This document shows positions 906 to 5,688 of a DNA stretch of 53,370 bases, one piece after another. How positions within the stretch are numbered: position 1 is the first letter of the stretch; each line of letters opens with the position of its first letter. Below the pieces are notes generated by a model. It was not told the DNA's origin, ran no database searches, and was given only the letters and a program-made list of their open reading frames with translations. This stretch comes from Acidobacteriota bacterium (GTDB lineage Bacteria > Acidobacteriota > JAAYUB01 > JAMOQF01). The position numbers and the translations under genes are program-made. Where the stretch lies: positions 1 through 53,370 of the forward strand of contig JAMOQF010000065.1 of assembly GCA_027064125.1 (NCBI GenBank), written 5' to 3'.

Positions 906-1216
906 ATAAGAGAAGAGATGAAAGGTACTATAAAAAAATTAGGATAAGAATTCAGGCGCCCGATGAGAATGGAAATTTTTTTGAAGAAGAGACATATGTG
1001 GAAAATTTTTCAAAGAATGGGTGCTGCATTTTAACCAGTAAGTTGATAAGGGAAAATGCACACATTATAATTTCTTCAATTGATGAAAGATTTGAATCGG
1101 AAGCAAAGGTGAAAAAAATCTGGCAGAAGGAAATAGATGGAAAGTTGAAAATGGGAGTTGAATTCTTAGATAACAGTGAAAACTGGTTGATGAATTATCT
1201 TGATAAGGAGGAATAA
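902..1216 (+). CDS. PilZ domain protein (c-di-GMP receptor)
   Basis: RRDER (RxxxR) and NFSKNG ([D/N]xSxxG) motifs, C-terminal MGVEF; ATGA overlap with upstream gene. Confidence 0.8.
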   Translation: MNKRRDERYYKKIRIRIQAPDENGNFFEEETYVENFSKNGCCILTSKLIRENAHIIISSIDERFESEAKVKKIWQKEIDGKLKMGVEFLDNSENWLMNYLDKEE

Positions 1217-2370
1217 TGGCAATAAAACCCCACGGTGGTATCCTGGTAAATAGATTGATAAAGGATGAAGAGAAAGAAGAATTCATTTCATCTCTTGGCC
1301 CTTTACCAGTAAAAAATGTAAATCAGCGTGAAGTATGTGATATTGAGATGATTGCTGTAGGTGCCTTTAGCCCCCTTGAGGGTTTTATGGGAAGGGATGA
1401 CTATGAATCTGTTCTTGATTTTATGAGGCTTCAAAATGGTGTTGTGTGGCCTTTACCAATAACTCTTTCCGCAACGGAAGAGGAGATTAAAGAAATTGGT
1501 TCCTCTGAGAGGATATTGCTTAAAGATGAAAGGAGTAATCTCCTTGCCCTTTTAGAAGTTGGGGAGATATTTAAAGTTGATAAAGAAGTGGAGGCTGGAA
1601 AGTGTTTAAAAACCACAAGTGATGAACATCCCGGTGTGAGATACTTAAAATCCATTGGGGATTACTATATTTCAGGTAAAGTAACTCTTATCAATAGACC
1701 CAGAAGACCTGATTTTGAAAGATATCTCCTTGATCCAAAGGAGACGAGATTTTTATTTAAGCGTAAAGGCTGGAAGAAGATTGTAGCCTTTCAGACGAGA
1801 AATCCAATTCACAGGGCACATGAATATCTCATTAAATGTGCCCTTGAAATTGTTGATGCAGTATTGATTCATCCCCTTGTGGGAGAGACAAAATCAGATG
1901 ATATTCCTGCCCATGTCAGAATGAAGTGTTATGAAGTTTTGCTTGATAATTACTTTCCAAAGACCCGTTCTACACTTTCAGTTTTTCCTGCGGCAATGAG
2001 ATATGCAGGTCCCAGAGAGGCAATACTTCACGCCATTGCCAGGAAAAATTATGGATGTACTCACTTCATAGTGGGGAGGGATCATGCTGGTGTGGGAAAT
2101 TTCTATGGCACCTATGATGCCCACTATATCTTCGATGAATTTGAAAGGGATGAGATAGATATTGAACCCCTATTTTTTGAACACTCCTTTTACTGTAGAA
2201 AATGTGGGTCCATGGCCTCCATAAAAACCTGTCCACATCCTTCAGAGGACCATTTCTTTTTAAGTGGAACAAAGGTGAGAAAGATGCTTCGAGAAGGAAA
2301 ACTTCCACCACCTGAGATGACAAGGCCTGAAGTTGCGGAAATTCTTGTAAGGGAATATAGGGGGGAATAA
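1216..2370 (+). CDS. sat: Sulfate adenylyltransferase (ATP sulfurylase, Sat type)
   Basis: PHGG start, GAFSPLEGFM, AFQTRNPIHRAHEY, MRYAGPREA, FIVGRDHAG, CxxC...CPH, LSGTKVR. Confidence 0.97.
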   Translation: MAIKPHGGILVNRLIKDEEKEEFISSLGPLPVKNVNQREVCDIEMIAVGAFSPLEGFMGRDDYESVLDFMRLQNGVVWPLPITLSATEEEIKEIGSSERILLKDERSNLLALLEVGEIFKVDKEVEAGKCLKTTSDEHPGVRYLKSIGDYYISGKVTLINRPRRPDFERYLLDPKETRFLFKRKGWKKIVAFQTRNPIHRAHEYLIKCALEIVDAVLIHPLVGETKSDDIPAHVRMKCYEVLLDNYFPKTRSTLSVFPAAMRYAGPREAILHAIARKNYGCTHFIVGRDHAGVGNFYGTYDAHYIFDEFERDEIDIEPLFFEHSFYCRKCGSMASIKTCPHPSEDHFFLSGTKVRKMLREGKLPPPEMTRPEVAEILVREYRGE

Positions 2371-2371
2371 A

Positions 2372-3760
2372 ATGAAAAAATTACTTATTATCGGTCTTGA
2401 TTGCGCTACTCCTCAACTTATGTTTGATGAGTATAGAGATGAATTGAAAAATATATCGTATCTGATGGAAAATGGCGTATATGGAAAAATGAAAAGCACT
2501 ATTCCCCCCATTACAGTGCCTGCCTGGACCTCCATGGTTACAGGAAAAGATCCAGGAGAACTTGGATTTTATGGTTTTAGGAATAGGAAAAGTTATGGCT
2601 ATGAGGATCTCTACTTTGCAAATGCAAGGTTTGTCAGGGAAAAAACTCTCTGGAACTATATGTCAATGAATAGGAAGCGTTCCATCATAGTGGGAGTTCC
2701 CCAAACATATCCTCCAAAGCCCTTAAATGGAATTTTGGTATCGAGTTTTTTAACCCCGGATAAAAACTCTCAATATACCTGGCCCAGAGACATTGCAAAA
2801 CGCCTTGATGAGATAGCGGATGGAGATTATATAATTGATGTTAAAAATTTTAGAACAGACGATAAGGACTGGCTTTTAGAACAGATTTACACAATGACTG
2901 AGAGGAGGTTTAAGGTTGTAAAGGAATTTTTAAGAGGTGAACCCTGGGATTTTTTCATGTTTGTTGAGATGGGAATTGACAGAATCCATCATGCCTTCTG
3001 GAGATTTTGCGATAAAAATCACAGACTATATGAAAAGGGAAATAGGTATGAGGATGCAATTTTAAATTACTATAAATTTGTGGATGAAAAAATTGGGGAA
3101 ATCCTTGAGATTCTGGATAAAGATACTTCCATTCTTGTTGTGAGCGACCATGGGGCAAAGGGAATGAAAGGGGGAGTTTGTATAAATGATTGGTTAATTG
3201 AAAAGGGTTATCTGAAATTGAATCGCAGGGTAGAGGGAATAGAGAAATTGAGACCAGATATGATTGACTGGAAGAATACAAAGGTCTGGGGTGAAGGTGG
3301 ATATTATGGAAGGATATTTTTCAATGTAGAGGATAGGGAGCCTGAGGGTGTAATCCCCAAAGAGGAATATGATTCCTTTAGAGATAAATTTATTGAAGAA
3401 TTGAAGGAAATAAGGGATGAAAATGGAAATGATATGGGAACGGTTGTGTATAAACCGGAAGAGGTTTACAGAGAGTGTAAAAATATACCTCCTGATTTAA
3501 TCGTCTATTTTGGAAATCTTGACTACAGATCTGCAGGAACTGTGGGACATAAAGAGATCTTAATATTTGAAAATGATACGGGACCTGATGATGCAAATCA
3601 CGCCCAGGAGGGGATTTTTATTTTTGCAGACTTTCAAAATAATTTTGGTGGAAAGGAAATTTATAATTCAATTTACAATATAACCCCCTTTGTGCTTGAT
3701 TTTTATGGGATAAAAGTAAATGGGGGATTTCAGGGAGAAAATTTTCTGAACAAAATTTAA
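2372..3760 (+). CDS. Alkaline phosphatase superfamily / type I phosphodiesterase-nucleotide pyrophosphatase family protein (Thr nucleophile)
   Basis: IIGLDCA, STIPPITVPAW, TGKDPG, DRIHH, VVSDHG, DDANH; no signal peptide. Confidence 0.9.
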   Translation: MKKLLIIGLDCATPQLMFDEYRDELKNISYLMENGVYGKMKSTIPPITVPAWTSMVTGKDPGELGFYGFRNRKSYGYEDLYFANARFVREKTLWNYMSMNRKRSIIVGVPQTYPPKPLNGILVSSFLTPDKNSQYTWPRDIAKRLDEIADGDYIIDVKNFRTDDKDWLLEQIYTMTERRFKVVKEFLRGEPWDFFMFVEMGIDRIHHAFWRFCDKNHRLYEKGNRYEDAILNYYKFVDEKIGEILEILDKDTSILVVSDHGAKGMKGGVCINDWLIEKGYLKLNRRVEGIEKLRPDMIDWKNTKVWGEGGYYGRIFFNVEDREPEGVIPKEEYDSFRDKFIEELKEIRDENGNDMGTVVYKPEEVYRECKNIPPDLIVYFGNLDYRSAGTVGHKEILIFENDTGPDDANHAQEGIFIFADFQNNFGGKEIYNSIYNITPFVLDFYGIKVNGGFQGENFLNKI

Positions 3761-3781
3761 AAAATTTTAGGAGGTTATCCA

Positions 3782-4381
3782 ATGGAAGGTTTTACTTTGT
3801 GGTTTACAGGTATGTCCGGTGCTGGAAAATCTACTCTTGCCAGAATGGTTGAGAAGGAACTTCTTGAGAGGGGACTAAAAGTTGAGGTGCTTGATGGGGA
3901 CATTGTGAGAACAAACCTGAGTAAGGGACTTGGCTTTTCTAAAGAAGACAGGGATGAGAATATAAGGAGAATTGGTTTTGTATGTCAACTCCTTTCCAGA
4001 AATGGAGTGGTGGCAATTGCCGCTGCAATATCTCCTTACAGGGAAATAAGAGATGAAAATAGGAGGAAAATTGGAAGATTTGTTGAGGTATATGTCAAGT
4101 GCTCAGTTGATAAATTGATAGAGAGGGATGTGAAAGGGCTATATAAAAAGGCCTTAAGTGGAGAGATAAAAAATTTTACTGGGATTTCTGATCCCTATGA
4201 GGAACCTTTGAATCCGGAAATAGTTGTTGATACTGAAAAAGAAACCCCTGAGGAAAGTTTTAAGAAAATAATTACAACCCTTGAAAAAATGGGATATATT
4301 CCCCCTTTGGAGATGGATGATTATTCTGAGGAGGAAGAGGAAAAAATCAAAAACAAACTGGAATCACTGGGGTATCTATGA
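3782..4381 (+). CDS. cysC: Adenylyl-sulfate (APS) kinase with C-terminal acidic LxxLGYL extension
   Basis: [13 protein letters not shown]-loop, [47 protein letters not shown]. Confidence 0.96.
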
Positions 4382-5688
4382 TTTCCTTCTTAAATAAGTT
4401 TTTAAAAAGAAAAAAGAAAATTATCCTTATTGGGATTGATGGAGTTCCCTTTACCCTTTTAAAGGACTTAATTGAGAGGGGTAAACTTCCATTTTTAGGA
4501 AAGAAGTTTAAAGAAGGGATTTTTAAGGAAATTTATTCACCTCTGCCAGAGATTTCCTCTGTCAGTTGGTCAACATTTATGACCGGGAAAAATCCCGGTG
4601 AACATGGGATTTTTGGATTTACAGATGTCAGTAATGGTTATAATCTTTTCTTTCCAAATTTTGCTTCTCTGAGGGCAGAGCCCATCTGGGAACATTTACA
4701 GGAAAAAGATAAGAAGAGTGTAATAATAAATCTTCCCTCAACATATCCTGCAAGGAGGATAAATGGAGTTTTAATAAGTGGCTTTGTGGCCGTTGACTTA
4801 AATAGGGCGGTTTTCCCTCAAAATCTTTTGCCCTATTTAAATTCCATAGGGTATAAAGTTGATGTTGATAATTCCCTTGGGAAGAAGAATATTGAAGAAT
4901 TTCTAAAGGACCTTTTTGATGTTCTTGAAAAGAGATTTATTGTAGCAAAAAAACTGGTAAAAGATATTAATTGGGACTTTTTCATGTTGACCATCACAGG
5001 AAGTGATAGACTTCACCATTTTTTATTTAAAAATTTTTTAGATGAAAATAGCCCCTATCATGAAGAATTTATCAGATATTATAAAAAAATTGATGATTAT
5101 ATATCCGATTTTTTAATGGGAATTAAGAATGATTATCTTCTTCTTATGATGTCTGACCACGGATTTACAGAGGTCAGGAAAGAGGTATTTGTAAACAATA
5201 TACTTTTTGAAAATGGTTTTTTAAAGTTTAAATCCCATGAAAATAGGAGTTTTGAAGGGATAGATTTTTCAAAGACAACTGCCTTTGCCCTTGATCCGGG
5301 AAGGATATATTTAAATTTAAGGGGTAGATTTGAAAGGGGAAAAGTAGATGGCAGGGAAAGGGAGAAGATTGTAAGTGATATTAAAGAATTGTTTTACAAA
5401 CTTAATTTTGAGGGTGAAAAGATAATTAAAAATATCTTTGAGAAAGAAGAAATTTATGAGGGAAGTTTTTTAAGCGTGGCACCAGACATTATCCTTCAGT
5501 CTGAAGATGGATTTGATTTGAAGGCCTCTTTCAGAGAAATTGAAATTTTTGCTGATACACACTTTCAGGGGATGCATACAAGGGAAAATGCCTTTTTTTA
5601 TGGGGATAGTGAGTTTGAGGACCTGCTTATAAATGTGAAAGAGGTGAAGGATGTTGGGAATTTAATCTTAGACTATTTTGAAGTGTAG
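4378..5688 (+). CDS. Second alkaline phosphatase superfamily / phosphodiesterase family protein (Ser nucleophile)
   Basis: [44 protein letters not shown] overlap with cysC. Confidence 0.9.

Follow-up and report, generated by a model that had tools for sequence, protein, structure and literature searches.

What are two enzymes of the alkaline phosphatase superfamily doing among the genes that make activated sulfate? The question is posed by a contig of an Acidobacteriota bacterium (JAMOQF010000065.1, assembly GCA_027064125.1), of which a stretch of 53,370 nucleotides, here called the window, was analysed. Near its left end, six plus-strand genes (72-5688) are packed as one operon that ends in a four-gene module, sat-AP1-cysC-AP2, in which AP1 and AP2 are the members of that superfamily, sat encodes ATP sulfurylase and cysC the kinase for its product, adenosine 5'-phosphosulfate (APS). 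A first-pass annotation of the sequence had read these genes as a candidate non-canonical sulfotransfer system, in which 3'-phosphoadenosine 5'-phosphosulfate (PAPS) is made and the AP proteins may move its sulfate, or that of APS, to an acceptor or else recycle the nucleotide. As a view of the system this has held up, and the sat/cysC pair is not assimilatory: the linkage is conserved, the reductase is missing, Sat-AP1 fusion proteins exist, CysC carries a tail peculiar to these clusters and a complex of AP1 with CysC is predicted. Sat-AP1-CysC-AP2 is a non-reductive PAPS module, serving sulfation and not sulfur assimilation. For AP1 and AP2 themselves the function favoured below, tentatively, is sulfuryl transfer.

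The four-gene module

Sat (1216..2370, plus strand) is a homo-oligomeric-type ATP sulfurylase, or sulfate adenylyltransferase (PF01747, 336 bits; PF14306, 180 bits), which passes the curated NCBIfam model NF003166 with 556 bits against a cut-off of 387. One nucleotide separates its gene from AP1 (2372..3760, plus strand), whose nucleophile is Thr48; 21 nucleotides, including an AGGAGG, lie between AP1 and cysC (3782..4381, plus strand). CysC is an APS kinase (PF01583, 209 bits) that passes NCBIfam model NF002059 with 277.4 bits against a cut-off of 244, and the last stretch of its gene (4301..4378, plus strand) encodes the conserved C-terminal tail, residues 174-199, which is predicted to lie on AP1 up to the catalytic centre. 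The gene for AP2 (4378..5688, plus strand), the soluble paralog of AP1 with Ser60 as nucleophile and the last gene of the operon, overlaps that of cysC by 4 nucleotides (ATGA). The tight linkage and the family assignments of the first-pass annotation thus stand.

AP1 and AP2 resemble nucleotide pyrophosphatases/phosphodiesterases

The two AP proteins are 29% identical to one another and are the sole members of their family in the source genome (2.58 Mb, 94% complete). Both far exceed the PF01663 cut-off of 23 bits (AP1 with 155.3 and AP2 with 143.4), and both have the nucleophile and the six metal ligands of the two-metal site of nucleotide pyrophosphatases/phosphodiesterases (NPPs). That the metal ligands are kept had been noted at first pass, and the observation extends to the orthologs: D10, T48, D203, H207, D259, H260 and H410 are invariant in 23 AP1 sequences, as are D21, S60, D210, H214, D260, H261 and H400 in 21 AP2 sequences. 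In alignments, T48 of AP1 falls on the nucleophilic Thr of the Xanthomonas NPP and on the Cys that becomes formylglycine in a sulfatase. The C/SxPxR motif from which formylglycine is made is absent at the nucleophile, where AP1 has TVPAW and AP2 has SSVSW; the sulfatase profile PF00884 gives AP1 21.8 bits, under its cut-off of 25, and does not match AP2. Neither protein matches a Pfam sulfotransferase family at E <= 0.001 or the profile of the family I soluble pyrophosphatases, PF00719.

Predicted models of both proteins are of good quality (pLDDT 89.6 for AP1 and 91.9 for AP2, pTM 0.91 each). The structures most like AP1 are ENPP4 (Z 29.6; root mean square deviation 3.4 over 339 residues), ENPP6 (29.2), the Xanthomonas NPP (29.2) and ENPP7 (29.1), followed by sulfatases (Z 23-25), PafA, SPAP and PhnA (about 24) and LtaS (19.3). 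AP2 is nearest to phosphonoacetate hydrolase, PhnA (Z 27.0), and to the Xanthomonas NPP (Z 26.9; deviation 3.7 over 328 residues). These likenesses are of fold: identity to any solved structure is 10-19%, and a phmmer search of PDB sequences returned nothing at E <= 0.01. In each protein, moreover, some 150 additional residues are inserted between SDHG and the final His. K131 of AP1 and R143 of AP2 both stand 83 residues beyond the nucleophile and, by count of positions, may correspond to the Lys with which PafA binds monoesters.

AP1 begins at its first core strand (D10) and the N-terminus of AP2 amounts to only 12 residues of basic type; direct reading of the sequences, with no signal-peptide predictor, finds no N-terminal hydrophobic stretch in either, in agreement with the earlier statement that signal peptides are lacking. 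The N-terminal multi-pass membrane domain of the LtaS/EptA type is likewise absent from both. Profile, active-site residues and predicted fold together place AP1 and AP2 in the alkaline phosphatase superfamily as NPP-like enzymes with two metals, soluble and cytoplasmic, and set them apart from formylglycine sulfatases, classical sulfotransferases and membrane transferases of the LtaS/EptA type. Were they to transfer sulfate, it would be as a family distinct from the classical sulfotransferases. The analogy with EptA and LtaS, drawn at the outset, is consequently a loose one: the superfamily is shared, but AP1 and AP2 are soluble and NPP-like (Z 26-30 to NPPs as against Z 19 to LtaS).

The linkage is conserved across phyla

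AP1 belongs to a very large family (all 8000 candidates scored match at E <= 1e-10); the best 120 of these at least 8000 relatives are 58-84% identical to it and are spread across phyla, over which AP1 is about 60% identical, a conservation like that of Sat. Conservation of the linkage had been named in advance as one of the points on which the proposal turned, and a survey of 80 AP1 loci from reference genomes found that the tie of sat and cysC to AP1 and AP2 is conserved across phyla. In 28 of the 80 loci, from at least 8 named phyla, cysC directly follows AP1; in 20, sat directly precedes it; and 23 of the 28 AP1-cysC loci continue with an AP2 ortholog (38-47% identity). The records are titled Eisenbacteria, Acidobacteriota, Latescibacterota, Krumholzibacteriia, Poribacteria, Armatimonadia, candidate division B38 and a bin of the Patescibacteria group. 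At least seven AP1-cysC loci (L005, L013, L014, L016, L020, L021 and L027) have no neighbouring sat, with several kb of upstream sequence present.

A second survey, of 251 genomes drawn evenly from the window's own phylum, gives the same picture (two unpublished genomes, G127 and G102, are counted only in its background tallies). AP1 is present in 35 of the 251. CysC accompanies it in all 35, as against 119 of the 216 genomes without AP1; Fisher values computed on this sample overstate the association, related genomes not being independent. AP1 and CysC lie within 1 kb of each other in 27 of the 35; in 2 genomes contig ends separate them, in 5 they lie apart, and in the remaining one AP1 appears to be a pseudogene. 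The last case (G177, contig C93, 40019-41039) is a genome of the same taxonomic order as the source genome, and its AP1 gene is interrupted by one internal TAG and one TAA.

Could generic phosphodiesterases have come to lie between sat and cysC by chance? The majority of the surveyed AP1 loci, 51 of 80, do not adjoin sat or cysC (in 3 of these the contig ends just after AP1); they belong mostly to Poribacteria, to Gaiellaceae and other Actinomycetota and to Chthonomonadales, with AP1 at 47-59% identity. Set against this are the recurrence of one gene order in many phyla, the adjacency of AP1 and CysC in 27 of the 35 AP1 genomes of the even sample, and, as described next, the existence of Sat-AP1 fusion proteins, a CysC tail that is specific to the cluster and AP1 interface residues that are conserved only in the cysC-linked group. 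An incidental linkage is already contradicted by these results and is scarcely credible.

AP1 is tied to Sat by fusion and to CysC by a tail

An ESM Atlas cluster holds proteins of 881 residues that combine ATP-sulfurylase and Phosphodiest domains, and AP1 has 267 matches at E <= 1e-20 among long proteins. All 120 of the 267 that were listed have the layout PUA_2, ATP-sulfurylase, Phosphodiest, with lengths of 826-909 residues and 50-57% identity over nearly the whole of AP1; those with names come from Anaerolineae, and the catalytic residues are retained. The fusions are known from the protein collection alone: in eight metagenome loci that were checked (L104, L106 and L107 among them), Sat and AP1 are separate open reading frames (ORFs). 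One of these loci stands a single step from a fusion, with Sat and AP1 in one frame (L104, 383-3034) and a single stop codon between them (1592-1594). For AP2, just two long proteins were found at E <= 1e-15, neither of them informative.

The CysC proteins of these clusters end in a tail of about 25 residues (consensus ...EYSxEEEEKIKxRLKDLGY[IL]) that is conserved in all 26 of the cluster proteins aligned. Among all the complete CysC genes fetched, a set in which a few loci duplicate one genome, the tail motif occurs in 43 of the 49 that lie within 2.5 kb of AP1 or AP2 and in 1 of the 42 others; CysC genes that adjoin sat without an AP gene lack it. One genome with AP1 in a glycan cluster has its cysC elsewhere, and that CysC retains the tail. 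A role for the tail as obligatory substrate or carrier, through a Tyr near its C-terminus, was considered and is unlikely: there is no tail in six of the 49 AP-adjacent genes, and several of the tails have no inner Tyr181.

Co-folding of AP1 with CysC, on separate alignments, gave scores of 0.69, 0.71 and 0.74, as against 0.45, 0.00 and 0.00 for controls, and supports binding. Among solved pairs 116 of 157 come up to that mark, and among mismatched pairs 2 of 215, a calibration that is rough only, custom alignments having been used here. Contacts agree to at least 93% and partner pLDDT is at least 88. The predicted interface sets residues 25-33 and 174-199 of CysC against AP1 residues that include T48 and H207. 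On the AP1 side, positions 91, 95, 98, 99, 101 and 116-119 are conserved (0.80-0.97) in cysC-linked AP1 and differ or vary in the unlinked proteins; positions that are conserved in the linked group and have a different consensus in the unlinked one make up 6 of 30 in the interface and 13 of 185 elsewhere. Thus AP1 appears, from these models, to bind CysC in such a way that the tail is placed on AP1 at the catalytic Thr. No solved structure of such a complex is known to us.

PAPS without a reductive sink

The first-pass annotation had found neither a reductase nor a classical sulfotransferase in the window, and we find none there either; the statement can be widened to the source genome, within the reach of the searches made. 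That genome gives no match for PF01507, PF01077, PF00685 or PF13469, and the aprA model picks up only 30-bit flavoprotein matches. PF03567, PF09037, PF17784 and PF19798 are also without a match, but their positive controls were silent too. Seven sulfotransferases of sister genomes, run by phmmer against the 3549 ORFs of the source genome, returned nothing at E <= 0.01, and a sulfotransferase motif expression found 0 matches, having recovered just 2 of 7 positive controls.

The reductase is also rare wherever the cluster is found. Of 29 linked-cluster genomes, 22 have no PF01507 match, 5 have a strong and 2 a weak one; the family is present in all 14 controls and, where AP1 is unlinked, in 20 of 21 genomes. 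In the phylum sample 6 of the 35 AP1 genomes have a reductase, and in 5 of those 6 AP1 does not adjoin CysC; a PAPS/APS reductase occurs in just 1 of the 27 genomes in which the two genes are adjacent. The absence of reductase, sulfite reductase and AprA from the source genome and the rarity of the reductase in the linked genomes mean that PAPS is made here without a reductive sink.

A proposal of sulfuryl transfer

How, then, might AP1 and AP2 serve such a module? In the mechanism that we propose, AP1 would be a physical member of the PAPS-making machinery, held to CysC by the kinase tail in most lineages and fused to Sat in others. Its two-metal site and Thr48 would take the terminal sulfuryl group from PAPS, possibly from APS, as delivered by its partner; a covalent Thr-O-sulfate would form on AP1, with release of 3'-phosphoadenosine 5'-phosphate (PAP) or AMP, and AP1 would then hand the sulfate onward. 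AP2, with Ser60 and a less conserved sequence, would act likewise but be more selective for its acceptor. What receives the sulfate is probably a sugar, a sugar phosphate or a nucleotide sugar, because genes for such compounds repeatedly flank the module.

Sulfuryl transfer is favoured because AP1 goes strictly with CysC and with a missing reductase, because the predicted docking on CysC puts the catalytic centre in the interface, because no classical sulfotransferase was found in the source genome or in 12 of the 29 linked-cluster genomes (in a six-frame search), and because AP1 orthologs occur in glycan clusters. That AP1 and AP2 carry it out from PAPS or APS through Thr48 and Ser60 is a possibility that we advance tentatively, the substrate, the sulfo-enzyme intermediate and the acceptor being inferred.

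The proposal can be extended to larger clusters. At least 11 loci (including L026, 10523-14767; L020, 10413-14596; L028, 10432-14734; and L010, 6960-11440) continue with two larger paralogs, AP3 (about 690-790 residues) and AP4 (about 660 residues); neither was found in the source genome. The N-terminus of AP3 is hydrophobic and is followed by the conserved motif AYIGPGAGFA, by another hydrophobic segment and by a stretch rich in Lys and Arg; AP4 bears signals of the twin-arginine (RREFL/RRDFL) or lipobox-like type. In both the nucleophile is Ser, and both contain the motif SGDHC and the insert of some 150 residues. In its fullest form the proposal would make AP1 and AP2 a new class of PAPS- or APS-dependent sulfotransferase, working on the NPP fold by way of a Thr/Ser-O-sulfate, with AP1 plugged into CysC by the tail or fused to Sat, and with AP3 (membrane-anchored) and AP4 (exported) carrying sulfation to the envelope, perhaps by way of a lipid-bound activated sulfate. 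As a whole we regard this as somewhat unlikely.

Several considerations weigh against sulfuryl transfer by AP enzymes. The two-metal Thr/Ser sites of the alkaline phosphatase superfamily are known to be poor catalysts of it. The roughly 60% identity of AP1 across phyla would be unusual for an acceptor-specific transferase and fits a universal small substrate better. AP4, with its twin-arginine or lipoprotein signals, would act where PAPS is absent. The tail is missing from 6 of 49 AP-adjacent CysC proteins and is therefore no obligatory part of catalysis. Classical sulfotransferases are found in 17 of the 29 linked-cluster genomes, and one Thermoanaerobaculia-like genus has inserted the gene for one (PF00685, 43 bits) between AP1 and cysC, while keeping AP1 and AP2 (L027, 8371-9165; L184, 3224-3955; L185, 3025-3816; L186, 2866-3657; in each a PHP-type candidate PAP phosphatase and AP2 follow). 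Since this same gene, at 43 bits as an ORF, scores 19 bits in the six-frame genome search, the failure to find sulfotransferases is a soft result. Finally, a known fusion partner of ATP sulfurylase is an inorganic pyrophosphatase (PMC2275785), which favours the alternative taken up next. (One of the loci with an inserted sulfotransferase, L027, also carries an IS200-like transposase gene, 10541-11374.)

A pyrophosphatase in the assembly?

AP1 could instead be a dedicated pyrophosphatase or other consumer of inorganic pyrophosphate (PPi) in a Sat-AP1-CysC assembly, pulling the unfavourable Sat reaction forward, with other proteins, whether classical sulfotransferases or AP2 and further paralogs, transferring the sulfate. 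This supposes a function analogous to that of the soluble pyrophosphatases and no place for AP1 in their family. The precedent is close: stramenopiles and haptophytes have ATP sulfurylase fused to an inorganic pyrophosphatase, an arrangement explained as an equilibrium pull (PMC2275785), and the Sat-AP1 fusions share that layout. A conservation of AP1 equal to that of Sat and CysC is what a small invariant substrate would lead one to expect, and a pyrophosphatase is compatible with the classical sulfotransferases, both those in 17 of 29 cluster genomes and those inside the cluster of one genus. The pyrophosphatases of these organisms are also suggestive. The family I soluble enzyme is missing in 28 of 30 linked-cluster genomes, the source genome included, and is present in just 8 of 51 AP1 genomes as against 10 of 14 controls; the membrane H+/Na+-pyrophosphatase (PF03030) is present in all 51 AP1 genomes searched and in 4 of 14 controls. 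AP1-bearing organisms probably keep PPi as an energy currency.

The phylum sample tells a different story. There the soluble pyrophosphatase is not complementary to AP1, being present in 11 of 35 genomes with AP1 and in 96 of 216 without it, and 120 genomes lack both. (AP1 as a general substitute for the soluble enzyme was rejected on these figures.) Moreover, it is CysC and not Sat that AP1 tracks, to judge from the AP1-cysC loci with no adjoining sat; AP1 is never without CysC (35/35) and is rarely accompanied by a reductase, although assimilation too would profit from a pull on Sat. CysC is also the predicted docking partner, and there are AP1 orthologs in glycan clusters away from sat (L003 and L039). 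We know of no pyrophosphatase of PPi among NPP-like enzymes. On balance we consider this function for AP1 unlikely, if worth taking seriously.

PHP-family genes and nucleotide clean-up

A third way to read AP1, AP2 or both is as clean-up hydrolases that convert PAP to AMP, or APS and PAPS to AMP or PAP and sulfate, and so relieve the inhibition of Sat, CysC and sulfotransferases. APS reportedly inhibits both of the enzymes that make PAPS. The closest folds are those of nucleotide pyrophosphatases and phosphodiesterases (Z 26-30); APS and PAPS should be chemically good substrates for an NPP, sulfate being a good leaving group; and the predicted contact with CysC, which takes in the catalytic centre, suits an enzyme that handles nucleotides. 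Yet hydrolysis of APS or PAPS beside the enzymes that make them would be a futile cycle.

For PAP, the expected product of the module, a different phosphatase is often at hand. A PHP-family gene lies between cysC and AP2 in four loci (L012, L016, L021 and L027), PHP homologs lie inside the cluster in four others (L121 and L184-L186) and one follows cysC in L189. The best NCBIfam match of the PHP protein is 3',5'-nucleoside bisphosphate phosphatase (219-225 bits, under the equivalog cut-off of 400), and pAp is hydrolysed by PHP-type enzymes of such a kind (PMC8268124). Several clusters that have this candidate PAP phosphatase still retain AP2, and the source genome already has a PHP homolog (46% identity, on contig C7) and a protein of the inositol-monophosphatase family. 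Clean-up seems to us an improbable function for the AP enzymes.

A further possible use of PAPS, as 3'-phospho-AMP donor for an alternative route to coenzyme A, was rejected, CoaE (PF01121) being present in 50 of 51 AP1 genomes, the source genome among them.

Sugar genes and the acceptor side

Sugar-nucleotide genes flank the module or AP1 in nine loci (L010, L026, L039, L127, L133, L134, L189, L190 and L191): epimerase/dehydratases of the short-chain dehydrogenase/reductase family, UDP-GlcNAc 2-epimerase, UDP-glucose dehydrogenase, a family 1 glycosyltransferase and a GHMP kinase with SIS. Together with the PHP genes and the inserted sulfotransferase, they point to a sulfation module, probably for a carbohydrate. 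In loci L003 and L039, AP1 orthologs stand in glycan clusters.

The sugar genes also allow the AP enzymes to be placed on the acceptor side of a sulfated-carbohydrate pathway, with sulfuryl transfer left to another protein: the substrate, of AP2 in particular, might be a sulfated sugar phosphate, which would be dephosphorylated, or a nucleotide sugar, which would be cleaved. The recurrence of sugar-phosphate and nucleotide-sugar genes beside the module would be accounted for, as would the lesser conservation of AP2 (38-47% identity), which is expected for a pathway-specific step. NPP-family enzymes do bind nucleotide sugars, and a complex of ENPP3 with UDP-GlcNAc is among the Foldseek matches. 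Such a role leaves both the Sat-AP1 fusion and the AP1-docking tail of CysC unexplained, and the source genome and 12 others would then be without any detected sulfotransferase. We think it quite unlikely.

Genes for S1-family sulfatases, with the Pfam domain starting from residues 5-9 and apparently no signal peptide, were seen near AP1 in Poribacteria (L029, 4448-5800; a neighbourhood common to 17 loci), in a glycan cluster of Syntrophobacteraceae (L003, 4170-5633) and in a cluster of Thermoanaerobaculaceae (L016, 12156-12695).

Relation to known systems

The nearest relatives of AP1 and AP2 are the NPPs (that of Xanthomonas and ENPP4, ENPP6 and ENPP7) and PhnA, with which they share fold, PF01663, the six ligands and, for AP1, a Thr nucleophile in the same position. 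They differ from these in being just 12-18% identical and cytoplasmic, in the insert of about 150 residues and, for AP2, in the Ser nucleophile; we know of no tie to sat or cysC among NPPs. The formylglycine sulfatases (PF00884), to our knowledge the only members of the superfamily known to handle sulfate esters well, are alike in fold (Z 23-25 for AP1) and in the alignment of their Cys with the AP1 nucleophile; AP1 and AP2 lack C/SxPxR, have the two-metal NPP-type ligand set and score below the sulfatase cut-off. In enzymes of the LtaS, EptA and OpgB type a covalent Thr or Ser intermediate is passed to an acceptor instead of water, so that the fold has a precedent for acting as a transferase. 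All of these are membrane-bound, with extracytoplasmic catalytic domains and lipid donors, whereas AP1 and AP2 are soluble and the structural match to LtaS (19.3 for AP1) is the weaker one.

The literature searched, with subscription journals outside its coverage, holds no description of a linkage of AP-superfamily or COG3379 proteins to sat or cysC, of the fusion, of the tail or of a sulfotransferase of this kind; the sole match for COG3379 concerns primases. Two known arrangements are similar in plan. Algal ATP sulfurylases occur fused to pyrophosphatase, APS kinase or APS reductase (PMC2275785) and so, like Sat-AP1, are joined to an enzyme that removes a product; the partner in the present case is an alkaline-phosphatase-superfamily protein of putative activity and not a family I pyrophosphatase, the setting is bacterial and most lineages have a docking tail in place of the fusion. 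In human PAPSS2 the APS-kinase domain binds SULT2A1, a consumer of PAPS (PMC6016456), a precedent for docking of such a consumer on the APS-kinase domain of its producer; SULT2A1 is a classical P-loop-like sulfotransferase, and the abstract of that work does not describe a tail of the CysC type. The module thus resembles PAPS synthase assemblies and algal ATP sulfurylase fusions, and its third component, AP1, is new.

Other features of the operon and the window

The operon opens with a gene of the class II aldolase/adducin family (72..905, plus strand; PF00596, 167 bits; best NCBIfam matches under their cut-offs), a copy of which, 56% identical, also precedes sat in locus L006. Next comes a gene for a small PilZ-domain protein (902..1216, plus strand; PF07238, 31 bits), whose start overlaps the aldolase stop (ATGA) and whose stop overlaps the sat start (TAATG); no PilZ gene adjoins the module in the other loci surveyed. 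A scan of positions 1-8400 for promoters and terminators gave results at chance level (34 promoter-like sites with 27.4 expected, 5 terminator-like sites with 6.3 expected).

Beyond AP2 the genes run on the opposite strand; among their products are a CysK-like enzyme and, encoded next to AP2, a membrane protein. The latter (5673-6707, minus strand; 344 residues) has several hydrophobic segments, two CxxCH motifs (CLVCH and CFNCH) and no Pfam or NCBIfam match, and is possibly a membrane-bound di-haem cytochrome c; the 3' end of its gene overlaps the end of AP2 convergently by 16 nucleotides. Farther along the plus strand, 8362-11883 encodes in a row an ArnT/PMT_2-like membrane glycosyltransferase, a YdjC-family deacetylase (best match HpnK, under cut-off) and an ArnC-like family 2 glycosyltransferase (NF007986, 203 bits, under cut-off). 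Such a trio brings to mind the polyprenyl-phosphate-aminosugar modification of envelope glycans, lipid A or others. Near the window end, among ORFs without a family match, a short ORF (49997-50758) matches the RHS repeat (PF03527, 41 bits).

An 11-mer, TTGCCTGRCAC, is present in the window in 13 copies with at most one mismatch, where 0.6 would be expected by chance (14-24, 50-60, 7781-7791, 7807-7817, 7898-7908, 12768-12808, 27497-27507, 48084-48487 and 49925-49935). Most copies lie between listed ORFs; two are just upstream of the operon and three upstream of the cysK-like gene. With TGGCAC among its letters, the 11-mer may represent a dispersed repeat or else a promoter element resembling those of sigma-54.

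What the module means

The textbook cast for making and using PAPS consists of Sat or CysDN, CysC, the reductases, the P-loop-like sulfotransferases and the PAP phosphatases. AP1 joins it as a fifth member, with a conservation close to that of Sat and with ties to the PAPS machinery through gene order, fusion and a predicted docking tail, and it does so in many phyla that have been little studied, among them Acidobacteriota, Latescibacterota, Eisenbacteria, Krumholzibacteriia, Poribacteria, Armatimonadia and Anaerolineae. If AP1 is a sulfotransferase on a phosphatase fold, it would represent a categorically new class of sulfation enzyme, of biotechnological interest for sulfated sugars. If it is a built-in pyrophosphatase, it would explain how the unfavourable sulfurylase reaction is run in an energy economy based on PPi. 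Either outcome would add a step to the activation and spending of sulfate. It would also mean that sulfated products are made by many uncultured anaerobes, and the label "phosphodiesterase", now given wholesale to thousands of genes, would be corrected.

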